Origin: Acidobacteriota bacterium | GTDB taxonomy: Bacteria; Bacteroidota; Ignavibacteria; Ignavibacteriales; SURF-24 | Direction of reading: 5' to 3' | NCBI GenBank assembly: GCA_050258415.1 | Contig: JBLMYS010000126.1 | Location: forward strand, 1 to 58,213 | Length of the DNA: 58,213 nucleotides | In this document: piece by piece, positions 11,683 through 55,475 of the stretch | How the letters are laid out: each line of letters starts with the position of its first letter | Numbering within the stretch: the stretch's first letter is position 1 | The notes under the pieces: model-generated | The model's input: only the letters and a program-made list of their open reading frames with translations | The model's database searches: none | What the model was told of the DNA's origin: nothing | Program-made: the position numbers and the translations under genes

Positions 11683-13029
11683 TTATTCAAATTTTTTATA
11701 GTCTAATATACCCAAATAGTATTCCAGCTGGGATTTCAGCCTGTAAAAATCAAACCTGTTGTTGATGTTGGTCTGCAGAGCAAGCGTATAGTTTGAACTT
11801 GCAAGCAGAAGGTTCACGAATGTACCTGATCCTATGTTGTATTTTTCCTGTTCAATCTGGCGGTTCTGCTGTGCTGAGAGTACATTCTTGGCACTCACAT
11901 CGAGCCTTTTCTGTGCCGCCTGAAAATCCAGGTATGTTTTCTTAAGGTCAATTTTTATCTGGCGCTCCAGCTCGGTTAGTTCAATTTCCCTAGTCTTTGC
12001 CTGGACCTTGGAATACTCGACATTGTTTTCAGTCGACCATCCTGAGAATATGGGGAGACTTAAGGTTAATCCAACTGAATACCCCCTGCTCTTAAAAAGC
12101 TCACTGATCGATTCGACAGTTGACCCAAATGAATTGGTGTTTGTAAGCCTCGGGAAATATCCCCCCTTTGCTATAACAACTCCGTTATTAGCACTCTCCA
12201 ATCTATACTGCGCGCTCTTATAATCCAACCTATTATTTAAGGCATCCTCAACTGCAGCACGGATGTTATCATACTGCTTCAAGAACTGCTCGCCTTCTAA
12301 AACCCTTGTGGTATCTGTTTCAATCGGATCAGATACATTAAAATCCGACATCACATCCAGCCCTAAGTATGTCAAAAGCTGGCTCTGATATGTATCCAGG
12401 TCGTTCCTTGCCTGAATTAATGCCAGTTCAGAATTCCCAACATTTACCTGCTGGGCATATACGTCAGCCAGTGTAACGGCTCCAAGTTTGTTTCTTTCTG
12501 TAAAAATCTCAAGGTTCTTCTGATTATATGCTAAATCATCTTCCCTTACCTTTAATACCTGCTTTGCATTTAAGACCAGGTAATAATCGGCAATTGTATT
12601 AAAGACTATATCCTGCTTGACCCTTTCTAAAGCCAGACGCGCAGCTTCCAGATCGTTTTTCGTCTGCGAAATAGTGGCAAAGTTTGCAAGCCCGTCAAAT
12701 AAGGTCCACTGCGTTGATGCCCCGGCCGTGTAACTACGGCTTTCCTGGTTGCCTGACCTGAAGACGAGTGTGCCTCCCTGGACGAATGTTCCCCCAGGGC
12801 CCTCGGAGCGGTCCCATCTCCAGCTTCCCGAGGCACCAAGGCTCGGCAAAAGCTGTCCGTAGGCCGCCTTAACATTAGACTCGTTTGTATTTATACTGAC
12901 AACATTTTTTGCTAATGTAGTATTCTTCTGCAGCGCTATTTTGACGGCATCATCCAAAGTTAAACTTTTTTGTGCCTTTGCATTAATGGAAAGAAGAAAT
13001 ATCATCAACAATGAGATATAAAAGCGCAT
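11683..13029 (-). CDS. TolC-family outer membrane efflux protein
   Basis: Signal peptide (INAKAQ) and a 448-aa two-repeat OEP-type sequence (LTLDDAVKIALQKN...). It is the first gene of the efflux operon. Confidence 0.85.
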   Translation of the reverse strand: MRFYISLLMIFLLSINAKAQKSLTLDDAVKIALQKNTTLAKNVVSINTNESNVKAAYGQLLPSLGASGSWRWDRSEGPGGTFVQGGTLVFRSGNQESRSYTAGASTQWTLFDGLANFATISQTKNDLEAARLALERVKQDIVFNTIADYYLVLNAKQVLKVREDDLAYNQKNLEIFTERNKLGAVTLADVYAQQVNVGNSELALIQARNDLDTYQSQLLTYLGLDVMSDFNVSDPIETDTTRVLEGEQFLKQYDNIRAAVEDALNNRLDYKSAQYRLESANNGVVIAKGGYFPRLTNTNSFGSTVESISELFKSRGYSVGLTLSLPIFSGWSTENNVEYSKVQAKTREIELTELERQIKIDLKKTYLDFQAAQKRLDVSAKNVLSAQQNRQIEQEKYNIGSGTFVNLLLASSNYTLALQTNINNRFDFYRLKSQLEYYLGILDYKKFE

Positions 13030-47692: not shown

Positions 47693-48058
47693 TTATTTGG
47701 CTTCTTCCTCAGGTTGTTCGCCCAGGAGTTCGTCGAGGATTTCCATAGCGTATCTGAGGTGAGGGATGACAATAGAGCCTCCGATAATGAGGCCGATATT
47801 AAAGGCCTCATAGATTTCCTGGCGTGTAGCGCCTTCTGAGACGCAGCGGTCGACGTGGTAGAAGATGCAGTCGTTACATCTCAGGACCATAGAGCCGACG
47901 AGTCCCATAAGTTCCTTCATTTTAGCCGGGAGGGCGCCGTCGATATAGGCTTTATTATCGAGAGCGAAGAATTTATTAAAGTCCCTAAAGCCCGAGTTGA
48001 GTATTTTCTCATTCATATCGGTGCGGTACTTGCGGGTTTCGGAGATTGATTTTTTCAT
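47693..48058 (-). CDS. Carboxymuconolactone decarboxylase / AhpD-like family protein
   Basis: 121 aa with the CxxC-containing motif LRCNDCIFYH, typical of AhpD-core proteins. Confidence 0.75.
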   Translation of the reverse strand: MKKSISETRKYRTDMNEKILNSGFRDFNKFFALDNKAYIDGALPAKMKELMGLVGSMVLRCNDCIFYHVDRCVSEGATRQEIYEAFNIGLIIGGSIVIPHLRYAMEILDELLGEQPEEEAK

Positions 48059-48292: not shown

Positions 48293-48385
48293 GGAGAGAT
48301 GGGTGAGTGGCTGAAACCAACGGTTTGCTAAACCGTCGTAGGGGGTAAACCTCTACCCCGGGTTCGAATCCCGGTCTCTCCGCCA
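48293..48385 (+). tRNA. tRNA-Ser (anticodon GCT), class II with a long variable arm and encoded CCA
   Basis: Acceptor GGAGAGA/TCTCTCC. Anticodon stem ACGGT/ACCGT with loop TTGCTAA. 7-bp variable arm. T-arm CCGGG-TTCGAAT-CCCGG. Discriminator G plus CCA. Confidence 0.93.
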
Positions 48386-48393
48386 TAAAAAAG

Positions 48394-48423
48394 GCCTGAA
48401 GTCAGAAGATTTCAGGCTTTTTT
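48394..48423 (+). terminator. Intrinsic terminator of the tRNA-Ser gene
   Basis: Sequence is gcctgaa-gtcagaagat-ttcaggc followed by tttttt. Confidence 0.8.
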
Positions 48424-48555
48424 GTGCCCTTACGTTAATGCATGCTCCCCTTCCTTTACCCATTAAATGGTACATAGAATAAATTATATTATTCCGGCAA
48501 ATTTGATTTAGATAAATTTCTGTGGTAATTTATTGCAAGAATTGGATAAAAGATT

Positions 48556-48812
48556 ATGCCGGAGATTTGCAGATTTTATGGCATTATAATATTCATGAAC
48601 TACAATGACCACAATCCTCCTCATTTAATGCGAGATATCACGATCAGGAAGTAATTGTGGAAATACAAACAGGAAATGTCGAAGGTAAAATGTCCCAAAG
48701 AGCTCTTACAATGATTTTTGAGTGGACAGACAAACACAGAAATGAGCTTCTTGAAAACTGGGAGCTGACAAAGCAGAGAAAATCATTAAAAAATATTTCC
48801 CCACTTCACTAA
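48556..48812 (+). pseudogene. DUF4160-family gene with a -1 frameshift
   Basis: Frame 1 reads MPEICRFYGIIIFMNYNDHNPPH and stops at 48652-48654. The continuation FNARYHDQEVIVEIQTGNVEGKMSQRALTMIFEWTDKHRNELLENWELTKQRKSLKNISPLH is in the next frame from about 48627. One base appears to be missing in cat-tt-aat at 48622-48629. Confidence 0.7.
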
Positions 48813-48815
48813 AGG

Positions 48816-49076
48816 ATGCTTATGTTTTTACATATTGAGCATTTTGGATTTAAGGACGGCTACGATCTAAAAATCAGGTTCAGCAATGGGGTTGAAAAGG
48901 ATGTGGATTTTTCGAATGAGCTTTACGGCGAAGTGTTTGAACCTCTTAAAGATGAATCTTATTTCAGAAAAGCATTCCACAACAGAGATACCAACACAAT
49001 CGAATGGCCTAACGGTGCAGATTTTGCTCCGGAATTTCTCTTTGGAATAGGGAAAGAGGTAAGAAGATCCGCCTAA
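48816..49076 (+). CDS. DUF2442-family small protein
   Basis: 86 aa: GYDLKIRFSNGVEKDVDFS...FEPLKDESYFRKAF...TIEWPNGADFAPEFL. It starts 4 nt after the DUF4160 reading frame ends, the usual pairing for these families. Confidence 0.7.
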   Translation: MLMFLHIEHFGFKDGYDLKIRFSNGVEKDVDFSNELYGEVFEPLKDESYFRKAFHNRDTNTIEWPNGADFAPEFLFGIGKEVRRSA

Positions 49077-49110
49077 AACCCGCCCCCCATTTTCCCGGTC
49101 TGCCATGGTT

Positions 49111-49218
49111 TTAATTATCAGAAATCTTGATTTATCATCAGATTTCTGATAATTAAATATTATTTTACCTTCCGGATTATTATTTTTTTCATGCAGTTTA
49201 TTCCGGCCCGATCTTTGA
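49111..49218 (+). repeat. Copy 1 of a ~110-bp intergenic module: 17-bp-stem palindrome plus conserved box ATGCAGTTTATT..GGCC.GATCTTTG
   Basis: The palindrome is ttaattatcagaaatct (49111-49127) / agatttctgataattaa (49140-49156). The conserved box lies at 49191-49218. It is homologous to 55371-55475 with the same spacing (78 vs 76 nt). Confidence 0.7.
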
Positions 49219-49293
49219 ACAGCTTTTACAAAAGATTAATTTAATAGAAAATTAAGGAAGTCATAATAACTTAAATTTTCAGGAGGACTCCCA

Positions 49294-50646
49294 ATGCTCA
49301 GGTTAAACTTAGTTCTGGCTGTTCTTATTATCTCATCTATTGCCTCTGCTCAGACATGGGTAAAACTTAACCCAAATTTCCCCAAACCGGATACGGTAGG
49401 CCGGATAGCCCAGATTACATTCACAAGTAAGAACATTGGTTGGCTATACACAACGTATGACAATACCCCTCATATTGATTTTGTAAAATTACTATATAAA
49501 ACGACTGATGGCGGTCATAACTGGGAGACTATGAAGAAAGAGATTACCAACAGGTATTCAACCTTTACAATGTTTTCGCTTGACCCTAACCATTTAATTA
49601 CAGTCGATGTGAACTTCTTTGACAGCACCTTTACTTCACTTCGAACATTAGATGGCGGGGAAAGCTGGGACTCGACACTTTTGGCTCCTCAGAAACACTA
49701 TTATTCGGGAGGGAATAATATTTACTTCTTCGACAAGGACAACGGGATCTTTTTCAACGACTACAGGTGGTATACAAGTGATGGAGGCCGTTCCTGGGAA
49801 AAGGGAGAAGATAACTTTTATTTGCCATACGTAAGTGATGTCGATTTTGTAGATCGCAACCTGGGTTGGATTGTCTGCAGTTATTCCCACTATGCAACTG
49901 ACAGCGGAGCCATTCTTGGGACAACGGACGGGGGTAAAACGTGGCAATATCATGATTCTTTAGCAATGATACTCTATGGAGTTGATTTTATCACTCCCGA
50001 TAAAGGATTTGCTGTGGGTACAAACTGGCATCACGATACGGGATTTATATATTCAACAATTGATGGAGGAAAAACCTGGCAACACGAGCAATTTAAGAAT
50101 ATGGGAGCATTCACGGACATTAAGTTTTTGAATGATACTACCGGATGGATTATCTGCGCTGATCCACAAAAGTTAAATAGCGGAAAGATATTAAAAACCC
50201 TGAATGGTGGGAAGTCGTGGGAAGTACAGGTGAATGGCATCAGTTCACAATTAAAGAAAATTATGATTAAGGATAATACAGGTTTTATTTTTGGTGATGA
50301 TTACAATTTAATGACTCATACACTTCTCCGGGCAGATCTCAGCAATATTACAGGGATATGGGATGAACATAAAATAATTGCAAGTACATTTTCCCTTTCA
50401 CAAAATTACCCGAACCCGTTTAATCCAATTACAACAATCAGTTATTCAATTCCCAAAGCTTCACTGGTTGAGCTGAAGGTTTTTGATATGCTCGGGCATG
50501 AAGTACAGAAGCTTGTGAGTAAGGAGCAGAGTGCAGGAGAATATATTTTAAAGTTTGATGCCTCTTCCCTGCCCAGCGGAATGTATATATATTCCATCCA
50601 GGCTGGGGACTTCAGAAGTTCAAAGAAACTCCTCCTGCTTAAGTAA
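49294..50646 (+). CDS. Secreted BNR/Ycf48-like beta-propeller protein with a T9SS C-terminal sorting domain
   Basis: Signal peptide (IASAQ). Asp-box repeats are DGGHNWE, DGGESWD, DGGRSWE, DGGKTWQ (x2) and NGGKSWE. The CTD is NYPNPFNPITTISYSIP...LPSGMYIYSIQAGDFRSSKKLLLLK. Confidence 0.85.
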   Translation: MLRLNLVLAVLIISSIASAQTWVKLNPNFPKPDTVGRIAQITFTSKNIGWLYTTYDNTPHIDFVKLLYKTTDGGHNWETMKKEITNRYSTFTMFSLDPNHLITVDVNFFDSTFTSLRTLDGGESWDSTLLAPQKHYYSGGNNIYFFDKDNGIFFNDYRWYTSDGGRSWEKGEDNFYLPYVSDVDFVDRNLGWIVCSYSHYATDSGAILGTTDGGKTWQYHDSLAMILYGVDFITPDKGFAVGTNWHHDTGFIYSTIDGGKTWQHEQFKNMGAFTDIKFLNDTTGWIICADPQKLNSGKILKTLNGGKSWEVQVNGISSQLKKIMIKDNTGFIFGDDYNLMTHTLLRADLSNITGIWDEHKIIASTFSLSQNYPNPFNPITTISYSIPKASLVELKVFDMLGHEVQKLVSKEQSAGEYILKFDASSLPSGMYIYSIQAGDFRSSKKLLLLK

Positions 50647-50862
50647 CAACATGAACTGATCACAGTTGAAAGTCCTTGAAGATCTATTCCCCAGGTTTAT
50701 TTTGTTGAAAAATATTTCAGGACATTTTGAGGAAATCGGATTTAATAAAGTGCCTAAAACAGCTTGTCTTTACTACTTTTTATGGTAGAACGCTTTCTTC
50801 CGGTCTCTCCGCCATCAAACAATTAAGCCTGAAGTCAGAAGATTTCAGGCTTTTTTTGTGCC
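50560..50862 (+). repeat. ~300-bp direct repeat, copy 1 (last ~28 codons of the T9SS CTD, 3' flank, tRNA-Ser 3' fragment, terminator)
   Basis: Roughly 90% identical by eye to 53714-54015. It contains ccggtctctccgcca at 50800-50814 and the hairpin gcctgaagtcagaagatttcaggc plus T7 at 50827-50857. Confidence 0.85.
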
Positions 50863-51133
50863 TGCACATTAAAGATTCTACTCCTTTATCCATTGTACCA
50901 GTACACAGAGAAATGCTATTTTTCCATAAAACCTGACTTAAATAAATTCCCGGATAGCTTAAACATGAATTGATAATGATTTAATAAATCATTTACATTA
51001 ATTCTCAAGTTTAATAAATTCAGCCGTGGGGATTTTTCCCTTCAGGCATTTTTCCTAATCAGGCTCAAATAGCCTAAGTATGAATAATGGTGGTACAATT
51101 TTCATTTTTCAACTGACTAAAGCGGAGACCAAA

Positions 51134-53800
51134 ATGAAACTTAATTGTCCGGCAGAAAATAAAACTATTATATTTAGTAGAATCTTTCCCCTCTTCTTTG
51201 TCCTGTTCTTTTTCCTAACTCCGGCTATTGGGCCCGGTGCTGCTTCAGCATCTATCACTAAAGACCTGAGAATATTGTCCTCAAATCAGGACCGGTATAA
51301 TAACGTAAGCCGGATTATTAAACCTGGCACAACCGGCAGCTCAGCAGGCTCGCTTTCCCTGGACTCACTTGCCAAGTCACTTGTTTCACAGCTTAACGCC
51401 GATAGCATAAGAAGCACTATACTGGCTCTTCAAAGTTTCAAGGACAGGTACGAACTAAAGCCCAACCGCCGGGACGTTGTAAAGTGGATAAAAGAAAAAT
51501 TCACTTCTTACGGCTTTTCCTCTGTTGAAACGGATTCCTTCGAATGTACCGTACAGGATCACCGTAATAATGGTGCTACAGCAACTGCATGGCAGCGGAA
51601 TGTAGTTGCTACAATTACCGGAGTAAAGAGGCCTGAAGAAGTTATTGTGATAGGAGGTCATTACGATTCTTATTCAACAACCCTGCCCTCCTATCTTGCT
51701 CCCGGCGCCGACGATGATGCCAGCGGAACAGCAGCTACAATGGAGCTTGCCAGAATATTGCGTAAAGATAATTTCCAGCCCGACGTTACAATAAAATTCG
51801 TAGCTTTTGGAGCCGAGGAATTAATGCTTTCGGGATACTCAGGATCAGTGTACTTCTCCGATATGGCTAAGAAAAATGGGATGAAAATTATTTTGATGGT
51901 TAACCTTGATATGATTGCCAATTCACCATTACCAGTCGGGAATAGTCCGGTTGATCTTTATTATTATACCGGTTTTGAATATCTGGTCCAGGCAGCAGCG
52001 GATCTTACCGGAAAATATAGCAGATTAAAAGCAACTAAGGCGAAGGGACCGGATATAGATGCTGATTCAAAATCTTTTGCCTCTAACGGATTCCCAGCGA
52101 TCTTTTTTATGGAACATACCTTTAGCCCGAACTATCACACAGATCAGGATATTGTTGAAAACTGTAATATGGAATATTGTGCCGAAGTTGCAAAGGCCGC
52201 AGGCAGCATGCTCATCTGGCAGTCTTTTATACCTCAGAGCATTAACAGCTTCAAAGTTACAGATGCCGGAACCGGTAGTACACTCAAACTGAATTGGGAT
52301 ATTCCATCGGGGAAAGAATCTCTTGAGTACAGAATATATTTGGGAACCGCCCCCGGTGTCTATTCGGATACATTTACAACTACACAAAACCATTATGAAT
52401 TAACAGGCCTCAAGGAAGGAACAAAGTATTACGCCGGCATGAGCGCCGTAAGTCCGGGTGGATTAGGAAGCTTTGTAGTTGAAAAATCCGCGACTCCAAA
52501 TTCAATTCCGCTCGTACCCTCTGCTGTTGCACAAGTTATACTTCCGCATAAATTGAAATTAACCTGGCAGCCTAATAAAGAGCTGGACCTGCTTGGCTAT
52601 TGTATTTACAGAAAAGACAGCACTCAGGCAAGCGCGCTGAGAATAAATGACGGCATTTGCCGCGATACATTCTTCATCGATGAGACTGCCGAAAAAGAAA
52701 AATTATACTTCTACAGCGTTAAAGCAGTAGACAGCGATTCCAACTATAGCCAAAGCAGCACTGAGATAAAAGCAAGAGTATTTAGCCTGGATCAGGGTAT
52801 ATTGTTAATTAACCTGACTTATGACGGAAGCGGAACTTCTAGTAATCCCTCGTATAAACAGGTGGATGATTATTATAAGACACTCTTTCAGGGACAGACT
52901 ACCCGGTACTTTGACATCAGAACAGGGGGACAGGTTACGCTGCTGGACTTGGGGATATATTCGACGGCAGTTATAATTAGCGAAAATCCCTCAAAATTAC
53001 CAAAACCCTGCGACTATTTAGATGAGTTGAAAAAATATATGGATCTTGGAGGCAACCTTATTTTCCTGGGCTTCAAGCCATCAATGTATTTTCAGTCGAA
53101 TTACAACACAAACGGAGATTTTGTTGCTGGAGACTTCAGATTCGACTATCTTAAAATCAAAAATTCCAAAATTACTGCGGAGGCAGGATCCAACAAGGCA
53201 ATTTCCTTATTCAGTCCATATATGGATTTAAGAATTGATTCGGCCAAAGCATACCAAAATGATTTTCATATGCCTTTAATAGAAAGCATTTCTGCCGCGG
53301 ACGGCGCCAGCCAGGTCTACAAATACGCCAGCAATTACAGTTCTTCTTTGCCCGGAGGCAATATGAATGATCTTCCTGTTGGGGTTGAATATTTTGGGAC
53401 TAATTACAAAACCTTTGTATTGACCTATCCTCTTTATTACGTAAAACAGGAAGACGCTAAAGATCTGATAAATGCAGTTGTTCAGAGAATAAATGCGCCT
53501 TCGGGTGCAGGCGAGCACAGGGAGACCTCAGGTATCCTTTCATTTGCACTCATGCAGAACTACCCTAACCCCTTTAACCCTGCAACTACAATCAGCTACT
53601 CGCTTCCAAAAGAATCATTTGTTGAGCTGAAAGTTTATGACGTGCTGGGGCGCGAGGTTATAACTCTCATCCAAAGTCTGCAGAGCAGGGGCGAACACAA
53701 GGTTCAGTTCAACGCCTCTTCCCTGCCGAGCGGAATGTATATATATTCCATTCAGGCCGGGGAGTTGAGAAGTTCAAAGAAACTCCTCCTGCTTAAGTAA
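51134..53800 (+). CDS. Secreted M28-family zinc peptidase with FN3-like domains and a T9SS C-terminal sorting domain
   Basis: M28 motifs are VIVIGGHYDS, GADDDASG and FGAEE. FN3-like segments include LNWDIP...YRIYLG and LTWQPN...GYCIYR. The CTD is NYPNPFNPATTISYSLP...LPSGMYIYSIQAGELRSSKKLLLLK. The likely start is MKLNC at 51134 after GGAGA; the ORF-track start is 51080. Confidence 0.85.
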   Translation: MKLNCPAENKTIIFSRIFPLFFVLFFFLTPAIGPGAASASITKDLRILSSNQDRYNNVSRIIKPGTTGSSAGSLSLDSLAKSLVSQLNADSIRSTILALQSFKDRYELKPNRRDVVKWIKEKFTSYGFSSVETDSFECTVQDHRNNGATATAWQRNVVATITGVKRPEEVIVIGGHYDSYSTTLPSYLAPGADDDASGTAATMELARILRKDNFQPDVTIKFVAFGAEELMLSGYSGSVYFSDMAKKNGMKIILMVNLDMIANSPLPVGNSPVDLYYYTGFEYLVQAAADLTGKYSRLKATKAKGPDIDADSKSFASNGFPAIFFMEHTFSPNYHTDQDIVENCNMEYCAEVAKAAGSMLIWQSFIPQSINSFKVTDAGTGSTLKLNWDIPSGKESLEYRIYLGTAPGVYSDTFTTTQNHYELTGLKEGTKYYAGMSAVSPGGLGSFVVEKSATPNSIPLVPSAVAQVILPHKLKLTWQPNKELDLLGYCIYRKDSTQASALRINDGICRDTFFIDETAEKEKLYFYSVKAVDSDSNYSQSSTEIKARVFSLDQGILLINLTYDGSGTSSNPSYKQVDDYYKTLFQGQTTRYFDIRTGGQVTLLDLGIYSTAVIISENPSKLPKPCDYLDELKKYMDLGGNLIFLGFKPSMYFQSNYNTNGDFVAGDFRFDYLKIKNSKITAEAGSNKAISLFSPYMDLRIDSAKAYQNDFHMPLIESISAADGASQVYKYASNYSSSLPGGNMNDLPVGVEYFGTNYKTFVLTYPLYYVKQEDAKDLINAVVQRINAPSGAGEHRETSGILSFALMQNYPNPFNPATTISYSLPKESFVELKVYDVLGREVITLIQSLQSRGEHKVQFNASSLPSGMYIYSIQAGELRSSKKLLLLK

Positions 53801-54015
53801 CAACATGAACTGATCACTGTTGAAAGTCCTTGAAGATTTATTCACCTGGTTTATTTTGTTGAAAAATATTTCAGGACATTCTGGGGACATCGGCTTTAAG
53901 AAGGTGCCTAAAGCAGCTTAACTTTACTACTTTTTATGGCAGAACGCTTTCTCCCGGTCTCTCCGCAAAAACTGATAAAGCCTGAAGTCAGATGATTTCA
54001 GGCTTTTTTTTGTCC
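53714..54015 (+). repeat. ~300-bp direct repeat, copy 2
   Basis: Aligns with 50560-50862. It contains cccggtctctccgca at 53953-53967 and the hairpin gcctgaagtcagatgatttcaggc plus T8 at 53980-54011. Confidence 0.85.
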
Positions 54016-54285
54016 TGATTGTGTTTTAATAATCAATTCCCTCTTATTTCATATAAGCCACTTCATATTCTCAAATCCGGCACTTAAAAATCAGGATTGT
54101 TATTGGACATCTTATCGGTTTAAGGTCACTCATTTCCCTATTGTGATTACACATGATTATTGGTTGTATATTACGGGTGAAAGTATTGAACTGTGATTAT
54201 ATGGAATTAAAAATTATCGGTTCAACGTCTTTACCCTTCACCAAATTCACTTCTCATTTCAACTTATTTATTTAAGGAGGGCCCT

Positions 54286-55146
54286 ATGTCAGATACTATG
54301 GAAATCTATTCAGAGCTAGTAAAGAAACGCACTAGTTATTCCGCAAATCCTTTTACCCTCACAAATATCACGGTTGGCGATATTTTAATGGAAGAGGATG
54401 GTATACTTACAAGTGCTGGAACAAATATTAAAGATAAGTTTGGCTATGAGATTAAAACTATTCAGTACCCATATCACGGAAATATGGAGTTTTCAACACA
54501 AGGCGTAAAATCAATTGTCAACAAAACACTGGGCGAAGCATATGAAGTGAAGCTAGACATTAATGTGGATTTTTCAAAGGATAGCCAGGTATTTTTCCAT
54601 ATTGAAGATGCCCATGTTATTGCTATAGTTGACAAAATAGCTTTAGGTCAGAAGATGTTGAAGTGGTATAAAGATGAAAAATTTAAAAAACATTGGAGAG
54701 TAGTCACCGAAGTAGTTTATGCTGCTATGACAGCTATTGCCATTTCGCAAGAAGAAAAATCATCCTATAGTATTGGTTTTAAATTAGTTCCAATAAAAGA
54801 CATAATTCCAAGTCCTATTAATTTGCCTGTAGATTTCGATTTTCAATCGAACGTAGGTATAGTTAATAAAAACAGTTTAAGTTATGAAATGAGTCAGAAA
54901 AATAGTTCACCTCTTTTACATATGTTACAAATTCATCAGTGGTTATTTTTCAAACCACATCCTGAGGAGAAACTTCTTGCCGAAAGCAAAAATATAGCTG
55001 AACAGGAAAAAATAAAATCCATATTTACAAAATTACAAGAAAAGGAGATACAACCCAAACCCGGGAAAGTAATTACACAAACACAAGAGATAACCACCAG
55101 TGACTTAGGTGAAACAATAGAAATACTTGAAGCGAATGAAATCTGA
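54286..55146 (+). CDS. Hypothetical cytoplasmic beta-rich protein with a charged C-terminal tail; gasdermin-like candidate (unverified)
   Basis: AAGGAGG RBS at 54274-54280. No signal peptide or TM. The segments QVFFHIEDAHVIAIVDKIALGQKM, HWRVVTEVVYAAMTAIAIS and SSPLLHMLQIHQWLFF resemble hallmark strands of gasdermin N-domains, compared from memory with human GSDMD. The tail is ~55 aa and K/E-rich. Confidence 0.35.
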   Translation: MSDTMEIYSELVKKRTSYSANPFTLTNITVGDILMEEDGILTSAGTNIKDKFGYEIKTIQYPYHGNMEFSTQGVKSIVNKTLGEAYEVKLDINVDFSKDSQVFFHIEDAHVIAIVDKIALGQKMLKWYKDEKFKKHWRVVTEVVYAAMTAIAISQEEKSSYSIGFKLVPIKDIIPSPINLPVDFDFQSNVGIVNKNSLSYEMSQKNSSPLLHMLQIHQWLFFKPHPEEKLLAESKNIAEQEKIKSIFTKLQEKEIQPKPGKVITQTQEITTSDLGETIEILEANEI

Positions 55147-55172
55147 TTTGATATTCAAATTTGATATTCAAA
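55147..55172 (+). repeat. Tandem 13-mer TTTGATATTCAAA x2, immediately after the stop codon
   Basis: tttgatattcaaa occurs at 55147-55159 and again at 55160-55172. Confidence 0.9.
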
Positions 55173-55174
55173 TA

Positions 55175-55196
55175 ATGGGCTCCAATTGGAGCCCAT
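55175..55196. repeat. 22-nt perfect palindrome / hairpin
   Basis: Sequence is atgggctcc-aatt-ggagcccat. No T-run follows, so it is not a classical intrinsic terminator. Confidence 0.8.
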
Positions 55197-55296
55197 ATTA
55201 TAAGGAGACACAGGTGGGTACATATCTATGCCGCGAAACCCGGAACACTTCGAAATAGGACAATTTCAAAATATTTATTCTGCTACCCTAGAATGG

Positions 55297-55309
55297 CGGT
55301 CTCTCCGCA
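55297..55309 (+). repeat. Fourth (shortest) copy of the tRNA-Ser 3' end; right border of the accessory region
   Basis: cggtctctccgca is followed by a different hairpin, accccga...tcggggt plus T-run, at 55319-55359. Confidence 0.6.
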
Positions 55310-55370
55310 AATAATGTGACCCCGAGTATTGCTTGCTTACGCTGTTCATCGGGGTTTTTCATTTTTAAGG

Positions 55371-55475
55371 GAATTATCAGATATTTGATATTATATCAAA
55401 TTTCTGAAGGTGAGATGCTTACATATCTGCTCAAATCTTGTTGTTTTATGCAGTTTATTGTGGCCTGATCTTTGG
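55371..55475 (+). repeat. Copy 2 of the ~110-bp intergenic module
   Basis: Begins aattatcagatatttgatattatatcaaatttctga. The core atttgatat-t-atatcaaat at 55383-55401 is a perfect palindrome. The conserved box atgcagtttattgtggcctgatctttgga lies at 55447-55475. Confidence 0.7.

Follow-up and report, generated by a model that had tools for sequence, protein, structure and literature searches.

A window of 58,213 nt (contig JBLMYS010000126.1 of assembly GCA_050258415.1) was analyzed, in which the open reading frame (ORF) at 54286-55146 on the forward strand encodes a protein of 286 aa, hereafter the query. The data showed that the query very probably belongs to the bacterial gasdermin superfamily. 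On balance, we slightly favor the reading that it is a highly divergent bacterial gasdermin (bGSDM), an autoinhibited suicide pore-former with its trigger encoded elsewhere, which was acquired horizontally as a single-gene cassette. The initial annotation, made from the DNA letters alone, had called the product a gasdermin-type protein, and this call was borne out by the profile of the protein family, by the predicted fold and by the protease partners of the relatives.

First, homologues of the query were sought. The query alone gave nothing meaningful against Pfam, PADLOC, NCBIfam, PHROGs or PDB sequences; its best curated matches, AOC_like (E = 0.16) and RclR (E = 0.22), were taken as chance. 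A word-indexed search of 5.8 billion proteins returned the query's own sequence only. An exhaustive HMMER scan of 1.84 billion cluster representatives yielded 102 relatives at E <= 1e-3, mostly 235-270 aa long, which covered query residues of about 5-235, and the best of these were P0004 (3e-15, 31% identity), P0005 (1.5e-11) and P0008 (5e-9). The query and 89 relatives were combined in alignment A1 (90 members). When the A1 profile was searched against 177,635 distinct PDB sequences, exactly three matches were obtained at E <= 10, and all three were bacterial gasdermins: 7N50 (E = 0.0024, collinear, profile positions 24-202 against chain residues 26-208), 8SL0 (E = 0.2) and 7N51 (E = 0.26). 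The PADLOC bGSDM model was matched by 14 of the 90 family members (best E = 1.7e-5), and a relevant Pfam family was matched by none of them. As the query alone matches no curated gasdermin model, its membership is transitive via the family, and the sequence link to gasdermins appears to be real but remote. A hidden Markov model match to Pfam Gasdermin or to bGSDMs, which the initial annotation had proposed as a check, was not obtained for the query alone; a match to bGSDMs was obtained through the family.

Direct BLASTP comparison of the query with two family members, P0121 (4e-7) and P0128 (1e-7), gave alignments collinear from residue 1 in both cases. Three strings of human GSDMD had been set against segments of the query in the initial annotation. 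These strings are real (6VFE residues 118-137, 155-174 and about 210-224), and the second query segment matched in this way, HWRVVTEVVYAAMTAIAIS, fell in the profile block that aligned to FFVVTKVWRARGIRISVAD of 7N50 and to LYVITQVIKSNEFTVAAEK of 8SL0. Neither the Pfam N-domain model nor the ~200-residue helical C-terminal repressor domain of eukaryotic gasdermins was present in the query, as judged by a Pfam scan and by a tail of 61 residues; the resemblance to the eukaryotic proteins is confined to the fold. No homologues were found in viral contigs, phage genomes or plasmids, and a phage or plasmid origin is not supported.

The fold of the query was predicted with AlphaFold2. The single-sequence model had a predicted local distance difference test score (pLDDT) of 31 and was discarded. 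The model built with A1 had a mean pLDDT of 81.7 and a predicted template modeling score of 0.75, with pLDDT of 81-97 over residues 1-170 and 190-220. In this model, the core consisted of an N-terminal helix, a beta-sheet and four long strands (137-154, 159-168, 187-196 and 200-215), while residues 169-186 (PIKDIIPSPINLPVDFDF), predicted with low confidence, formed a lineage-specific insertion between two hairpin strands according to the model and the family alignment. On the basis of HMMER coverage, the family profile, AlphaFold2 and Foldseek, residues 1-225 (54286-54960, +) were assigned as a putative gasdermin-like pore-forming core. A fold prediction followed by a structure search had also been suggested as a check. 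When the model was compared by Foldseek with 350,542 PDB chains, gasdermins occupied all of the first 11 places with a probability of 0.97-1.0, although the TM-scores, considered below, were low. The matches included the Trichoplax GSDM pore (E = 1.6e-5), the GSDMA3 pore, the Vitiosangium bGSDM oligomer and pore, RCD-1, the GSDMD pore, Runella bGSDM and GSDMB, and after the gasdermins came MACPF and CDC pore-formers with low probability. The best matches were pore-state structures, which, together with the low TM-scores, may mean that the hairpins are extended in the model. As a negative control, the same model was compared with a viral structure library, which gave nothing below E = 0.005.

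We also analyzed the flanking DNA of 16 family members including the query, a small sample biased to the query's relatives; for the metagenome locus scan, a 5-sequence alignment was used, which gave eight loci. A caspase-like protease was encoded within two genes of the gasdermin-like gene at 4 of the 16 loci. At the P0121 locus, a 1081-aa TPR-CHAT protein starts 5 nt downstream. P0128 is flanked by a C14 peptidase of 500 aa and an nSTAND-WD40 protein, and genes for a patatin and an NADase are close by. The homologue in L108 is followed by genes for ThsB-TIR, a C14 peptidase and TIR-TPR. P0008, which matches the query directly, is two genes away from a C14-TPR protein. These four contexts correspond to the classic gasdermin operon types of Johnson et al. 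One further locus, P0016, was ambiguous, with an S8 peptidase 4 kb off.

The remaining 11 of the 16 loci were without a recognizable protease; unrecognized neighbors could hide new proteases. Besides the query in its tRNA-Ser cassette array, these loci were P0004 (Ignavibacteriales UTCHB2), which lies between integrases and a Prim-Pol gene; P0005 (Draconibacterium), of which the copy in L104 adjoins a type I restriction system (HsdR by Pfam), with small toxin-antitoxin-like ORFs alongside, as seen by eye, and a tRNA-Val 3.4 kb away; P0006, on a short contig; P0012, which adjoins a dCTP deaminase; P0010 and the archaeal P0119, both with unknown neighbors; and the homologues in L105, L106, L110 and L111, with unknown or non-protease neighbors. 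Most of the query's closest relatives also stand alone, and some relatives are found among restriction-modification, toxin-antitoxin, TIR, NLR-like or patatin genes. An all-against-all BLASTP comparison of the neighbors of the 16 loci gave no recurrent unknown partner; all that was shared was a HisKA_3/LuxR two-component pair at three Bacteroidota-like loci, and nothing relevant in the window was homologous to any neighbor. In the founding survey, Johnson et al. (bioRxiv 10.1101/2021.06.07.447441) reported an adjacent protease for 43 of 50 bGSDMs and none for the other 7. Stand-alone status is not unique to the query; no paper characterizing a stand-alone bGSDM was found in the gasdermin literature.

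Several other arrangements were seen in the family. In L105, L108 and L118, whose gasdermin-like genes belong to one sub-branch, the gene is located just 3' of a pair encoding a HisKA_3 histidine kinase and a LuxR-type response regulator, and in L105 and L108 small membrane proteins are also near. This linkage, which is absent from the window, may reflect transcriptional control or simple synteny. At the P0012 locus (L115/L116), the gasdermin-like gene is tail-to-tail with the dCTP deaminase-family gene, which is followed by two unknown genes and a MerR regulator. dCTP deaminases can act as anti-phage effectors, and judging by gene content the locus may be a small defense cluster. Three relatives were unusually built. 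P0034 (618 aa) has an N-terminal DNA/RNA non-specific endonuclease domain fused to a C-terminal gasdermin-like domain (residues 361-579), and in P0046 (1346 aa) and P0047 (1585 aa) query residues of about 116-165 were matched eight to ten times, as if a helix-strand unit were repeated.

The gene itself was then examined. The ORF at 54286-55146 was the sole plausible gene in 53968-55296, since the remaining frames of 40-53 aa lacked a ribosome-binding site and were attributed to chance. The initial annotation had described a single AT-rich gene between the third and fourth copies of a tRNA-Ser 3' end, with a consensus ribosome-binding site, a tRNA terminator copy upstream, a perfect palindrome downstream and a repeated octamer in its leader, and each of these features was found. 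The Shine-Dalgarno sequence AAGGAGG is at 54274-54280 (+), with the ATG 5 nt further on. The GC content of the gene was 33.3%, in comparison with 42.6% for the window, and its GC content at third codon positions was 27.5%, in comparison with 41-45% for the neighboring genes; the gene is compositionally foreign. The leader octamer TGTGATTA is present at 54142 and 54192, although an 8-mer that occurs twice is not significant alone. The terminator copy is at 53977-54006. In the 3' flank (55147-55196, +), the near-palindromic 13-mer TTTGATATTCAAA occurs twice in tandem at 55147-55173, directly after the stop codon, and is followed by the 22-nt perfect palindrome ATGGGCTCCAATTGGAGCCCAT at 55175-55196. 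The tandem 13-mers could be a protein-binding or recombination site. The palindrome forms a stem-loop (fold z-score -3.7) without a clear T-run, and was not called by the terminator scan. In nine further assemblies of the same project, the gene was 99.6-100% identical with the same flanks, an identity at which no selection signal is readable.

The N-terminus, MSDTMEIYSELVKKRT, contains no signal-like segment, and no hydrophobic span of transmembrane length was present when the sequence was read by eye, without a dedicated predictor; both points agree with the initial annotation. The query thus appears to be a soluble cytoplasmic protein, and its 286 aa are within the bGSDM size class of ~240-300 aa. 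A charged C-terminal tail had likewise been pointed out, and 12 Glu and 8 Lys were counted in the 61 residues concerned (226-286; 54961-55146, +, including the stop codon). From the model, the alignment and the bGSDM literature, this tail was assigned as a putative autoinhibitory element. It reaches ~30 residues beyond the family norm, and contains helices predicted with confidence at 226-233 and 237-253, after which an acidic low-confidence end follows. About a third of the family (A1, 90 members) carries a C-terminal motif a few residues from the end, in which an acidic stretch is followed by hydrophobic-[Y/F]-F-G-[Q/E]-hydrophobic, as in ELFFGQLP, DLYFGQLK and NLYFGEYLED. The C-terminal end of the query, SDLGETIEIL (L274-G275), aligns to this motif without its aromatics. 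The motif is a candidate autoinhibitory plug or recognition site, reminiscent of the aromatic residues that act as a plug in the inhibitory peptide of Bradyrhizobium; no description of it was found in the gasdermin literature examined.

The data establish that the query belongs to the family, stands alone in the window, lies in an insertion at a tRNA gene and has a foreign composition; how the protein might work, from pore and tail to trigger and role in defense, is proposed here. In characterized bGSDMs, a short C-terminal peptide keeps the protein inactive, and cleavage activates it. By analogy with them, the core of residues 1-225 would refold, oligomerize and insert its long beta-hairpins, and in this way open a large pore in the inner membrane of its own cell. 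The last ~60 residues, with two helices, an acidic end and a degenerate plug motif, would hold the core inactive until the tail was removed or displaced, and release of the pore-former would then lead to cell death, most plausibly as an abortive-infection defense. The trigger would be a protease or another factor that is not encoded in cis and that comes from the host genome or from an invading phage or mobile element. The gene itself was acquired horizontally, as indicated by the empty site and the different cargo at this locus in relatives and by a GC content of 33% against 43%. It is all that is carried by an integrase-less cassette of 1.33 kb, and three such cassettes are stacked at the 3' end of a tRNA-Ser(GCT) gene.

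The island that carries the gene was therefore delimited. The intact tRNA-Ser(GCT) is at 48293-48385 (+; ARAGORN; Rfam RF00005, 58 bits), and an Rfam scan of 47.5-56.5 kb gave only this tRNA and an antisense artefact on it. The 11-mer GGTCTCTCCGC from the tRNA 3' end occurs exactly four times in the window (48373, 50802, 53956 and 55298), where 0.02 occurrences are expected and 0 of 100 shuffles reached four; the third and fourth 3'-end copies named in the initial annotation are among them. Copy 1 (48371-48383, +), which is att-like, is the end of the intact tRNA. Repeat analysis placed copy 2 with a terminator hairpin copy at 50800-50864 (+), the boundary between cassettes 1 and 2, and copy 3 at 53954-53966 (+), the left boundary of the gasdermin cassette. 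Copy 4 (55296-55309, +), defined by the repeats and by alignment with L024 and L025, is the right boundary of the array, where the backbone begins. One terminator-type hairpin recurs behind each of copies 1-3, and at the left end of the gasdermin cassette (53977-54006, +) it has a 13-bp stem and a T-run (z-score -4.7). Copy 4 is followed by a different, ancestral terminator hairpin (CCCCGAG...CGGGG with TTTTT, 55318-55356, +; z-score -3.8), which stands directly after the tRNA in L024.

Three close relatives, L024, L025 and L027, were compared with the window, as the initial annotation had recommended for the tRNA-Ser locus, and the backbone was collinear up to the tRNA-Ser. In L024, the tRNA 3' end is joined straight to the sequence that follows copy 4 (window 55291-55368, 79% identity). 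This empty site shows that 48386-55296 is an insertion of 6.9 kb, an array of three cassettes bounded by direct repeats of the tRNA 3' end. In L025, two different cassettes, with DinB and SAM methyltransferase genes, occupy the same space. They are parted by a fragment-plus-hairpin module that is 91% identical to window 53946-54010 (L025 reverse complement 11797-11861), and collinearity resumes exactly at copy 4 (55299). The internal junctions thus consist of a ~65-nt module made of the tRNA 3' end and the terminator hairpin. L027 has other content again, including an apparent IS66-type transposase, identified by eye without a family search. In this lineage of Ignavibacteria, DNA integrates at a hypervariable hot spot formed by the tRNA-Ser(GCT) 3' end. 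In a survey of 80 related loci, the tRNA-Ser was beside the carboxymuconolactone decarboxylase family (CMD) gene (47693-48058, -) only in the three closest genomes. The window comes from an Ignavibacteria/Ignavibacteriales metagenome-assembled genome. Two of the public records used, P0002 (MGE5497326.1) and L025 (JBLNAZ010000199.1), on contigs with this gene or with the syntenic backbone, are labeled Syntrophothermus sp. or Syntrophomonadaceae, but by gene content and nearest relatives they are Ignavibacteria; the labels are probably binning or taxonomy errors.

Cassette 1 is made up of genes for a DUF4160 protein (frameshifted), a DUF2442 protein and a BNR protein, cassette 2 of an M28 peptidase gene, and cassette 3, 1.33 kb long, of the gasdermin gene. 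Copies 2 and 3 lie inside a 287-nt duplication (50526-50812 against 53680-53966, 88% identical), which spans the sorting domain for the type IX secretion system (T9SS), the stop codon and ~150 nt downstream of two otherwise different proteins, the 450-aa BNR protein and the 906-aa M28 peptidase. Since the repeat covers both gene ends, cassettes 1 and 2 share a right end, which may have arisen by duplication, by gene conversion or as a common mobile module. The DUF4160 gene (48546-48812) has a frameshift near 48620 and matched Pfam at 5e-18 once the frame was corrected; it is followed by the DUF2442 gene (48822-49076). Decay of this small gene pair, which comes directly after the tRNA, or an assembly error could explain the frameshift. 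The stretch 49110-49232, which precedes the BNR gene, resembles 55372-55474, upstream of the DUF6174 gene (34 nt, 85% identity); an 18-nt perfect inverted repeat is located at 49110-49157, and one L025 stretch matches both upstream regions. Cassette 1 thus seems to have received a copy of a promoter or operator segment.

Neither a phmmer search of the window, for which two Ignavibacteriales integrases served as queries, nor Pfam scans of 21 of its proteins, which included all genes from 45.5 kb to the end, revealed an integrase. An integron cassette was rejected, as there is no integrase and the repeat unit is a tRNA 3' end with a terminator-type hairpin, which is not attC-like, as judged without a dedicated attC model. 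By analogy, the array fits successive site-specific integrations at one tRNA, with partial tRNA copies left between the elements; mobility genes would have been lost later, or mobilization would have occurred in trans. Alternatively, the conserved modules on either side may have recombined homologously and so swapped the cargo.

The genes near the gasdermin cassette encode the T9SS-secreted BNR-repeat protein and M28 peptidase, a DUF6174 lipoprotein, a 241-aa lipoprotein, a GNAT acetyltransferase and a DUF4738 protein, and the upstream 45 kb are housekeeping, including RecQ, ABC-F, ROK and PorZ-like genes. The initial annotation had found no activating protease or NLR-like partner in cis and had named a secreted M28 enzyme as the only nearby peptidase. 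The lack of a partner held across the 58-kb window, and within about 10 kb the genes are for housekeeping or secreted proteins. The M28 peptidase was considered as an activator and rejected, because it has a T9SS sorting tail and hence is secreted. The sole HExxH protein in the window is a Peptidase_MA-like ORF 38 kb away.

A number of results weigh against reading the query as an autoinhibited bGSDM triggered from elsewhere. In sequence searches, the query alone matched no gasdermin model in Pfam, PADLOC (bGSDM PDLC02986) or PDB sequences even at E <= 10, and a profile of the 28 closest relatives still placed 7N50 first but with a non-significant E of 0.065, tied with an unrelated protein. 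The Foldseek matches had TM-scores of 0.31-0.40 and a root-mean-square deviation of 12-19 A, so that the fold match, which reflects similarity in local 3Di states and a consistent list of hits and no global superposition, is supportive rather than decisive. The last ~25 residues, which include the proposed plug, had pLDDT < 50. There are also no cysteines in the query: Ser9 aligns with Cys8-10 of P0004, P0005, P0006, P0010 and P0012. The toxicity of Runella bGSDM required palmitoylation, and as the query has no Cys, palmitoylation of the Runella or Bradyrhizobium type cannot occur; certain known bGSDMs, such as that of Gillisia, are also without an N-terminal Cys. Finally, homologues of CHAT or C14 proteases were absent from the 58-kb window, as were the serine-protease motifs GDSGG and GTSMA, and neither a partner protease nor an NLR-like ATPase nor any other partner was detected there. 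The contig ends 3 kb downstream of the cassette, and a partner may lie farther off. No recognized defense gene was found among the other cassettes or the immediate neighbors.

Four other explanations were weighed. It is rather unlikely, in our view, that the query is a gasdermin-family pore-former activated without cleavage, by its expression level, by a conformational or redox trigger, or by a phage or host factor that binds the tail, in the manner of Trichoplax gasdermin (TrichoGSDM) and RCD-1. No protease is encoded in cis here and none was recognized beside 10 other relatives; the best Foldseek matches include the cleavage-independent 8JYW and 8JYZ, and the closest relative, P0004, has almost no tail beyond the core. 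However, autoinhibition is suggested by the long tail that the query has kept, in which a remnant of the C-terminal motif survives, the lack of Cys makes a TrichoGSDM-like disulphide switch impossible, and there is no second paralogue for a heteromer of the RCD-1 type.

The gene could also be an inert passenger, the remnant of a decaying gasdermin-protease operon that lost its partner on capture in the tRNA-Ser island. The partner is absent, the conserved Cys is lost and the C-terminal motif is degenerate; the cassettes have no integrase, and the frameshifted DUF4160 gene shows that decay occurs in the same island. Nevertheless, the frame is intact over 286 codons in AT-rich DNA and is preceded by a consensus ribosome-binding site, and the gene is conserved at 99.6-100% with the same flanks in the nine further assemblies. 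In addition, a functional subtype that stands alone is favored by the fact that this is the rule for the closest relatives, which come from different phyla, and we regard the passenger explanation as unlikely.

A gasdermin-like pore-former that serves a purpose other than defense, such as lysis or release on behalf of a mobile element, of gene-transfer particles or of vesicles, or else cell death in development, seems quite unlikely, as viral contigs, phage genomes and plasmids yielded no homologue and there are no structural or lysis genes nearby. In favor of such a role, the closest relative (P0004) lies inside an integrase/Prim-Pol element, the window gene is in a mobile-DNA hot spot where the other cargo is not defense-related, and a gasdermin-related CARD-NLR system has been connected with the release of gene-transfer agents. 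That the query is no gasdermin at all but belongs to an unrelated beta-rich cytoplasmic family, with a resemblance due to chance or convergence, would account for the low TM-scores, the marginal 28-relative profile (E = 0.065) and the lack of a relevant Pfam family for the query or any of the 90 members, but it is very unlikely, since three independent lines converge on gasdermins only and members of the same family are found in classic operons with CHAT/C14 proteases and NLR-like ATPases.

Returning to the autoinhibited bGSDM, the stand-alone subgroup might, as a speculative and rather improbable extension, consist of one-gene sensor-effectors, in which the tail plug serves as a decoy substrate or binding site for a phage protease or another protein of the invader. 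If this were true, infection itself would unplug the pore-former, no dedicated bacterial protease or NLR would be needed, and a minimal cassette of one gene between repeats of a tRNA fragment could be the form in which such genes spread.

The executioners of pyroptosis have their prokaryotic ancestors in the bacterial gasdermins. To our knowledge, all characterized bacterial gasdermins are switched on by a protease encoded next door, and the automated detection tools known to us build on this gasdermin-protease pairing. The family as such is known; what is new is a member that is invisible to curated models, that lacks both an adjacent protease and an N-terminal Cys, and whose tail is extended and whose branch is largely stand-alone. 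Like the query, most of its closest relatives, which are from Ignavibacteriota, Bacteroidota and one archaeon, have no adjacent partner and are missed by the curated models, so standard pipelines may miss a sizeable set of gasdermin-like proteins. How such proteins are silenced and triggered, whether by a trans-acting host protease, by a phage protease or without cleavage, is directly testable, and the locus is a clean natural minimal gasdermin cassette of 1.3 kb with defined boundaries, convenient for cloning and truncation work. The finding would overturn nothing, but points to an under-detected class of gasdermins.

Finally, the locus and the protein were compared with known systems. Stacked tRNA-gene islands of this kind are also comparable to cis-mobilisable elements. 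The array resembles tycheposon-type islands (bioRxiv 10.1101/2020.12.28.424599) in the copies of the tRNA end between stacked elements, the integrase-less degenerate remnants and the strain-variable cargo. However, the cassettes here are only 1.3-3.1 kb long with one to three genes, no integrase or replication module was found, and each cassette starts with a copy of the tRNA terminator hairpin.

Among gasdermins, the query is like Trichoplax GSDM (8JYW) and Neurospora RCD-1 (8JYZ) in having the N-domain only and no dedicated adjacent protease (Foldseek E = 1.6e-5 and 2.4e-4, respectively), but these proteins are only 7-10% identical to it. TrichoGSDM is controlled by disulphides, for which the query has no Cys, and RCD-1 requires two allelic partners, for which no paralogue is present. 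In contrast to the bGSDMs of Runella zeae (7N52), Bradyrhizobium tropiciagri (7N50) and Vitiosangium (7N51/8SL0/9A84), the query has no adjacent protease and no N-terminal Cys, its tail is ~30 residues longer than the family norm with a degenerate C-terminal motif, it is too divergent for the PADLOC bGSDM model, and it is the only gene of an integrase-less cassette between tRNA fragments. Nevertheless, the query is close to these bGSDMs in size (286 aa against about 240-270 aa), and like them it appears to be cytoplasmic, with a predicted gasdermin-N-like beta core and a C-terminal extension only, without a large helical C-domain. The family profile is collinear with 7N50, and relatives of the query adjoin CHAT/C14 proteases and NLR-like proteins, as is characteristic of the bGSDMs.

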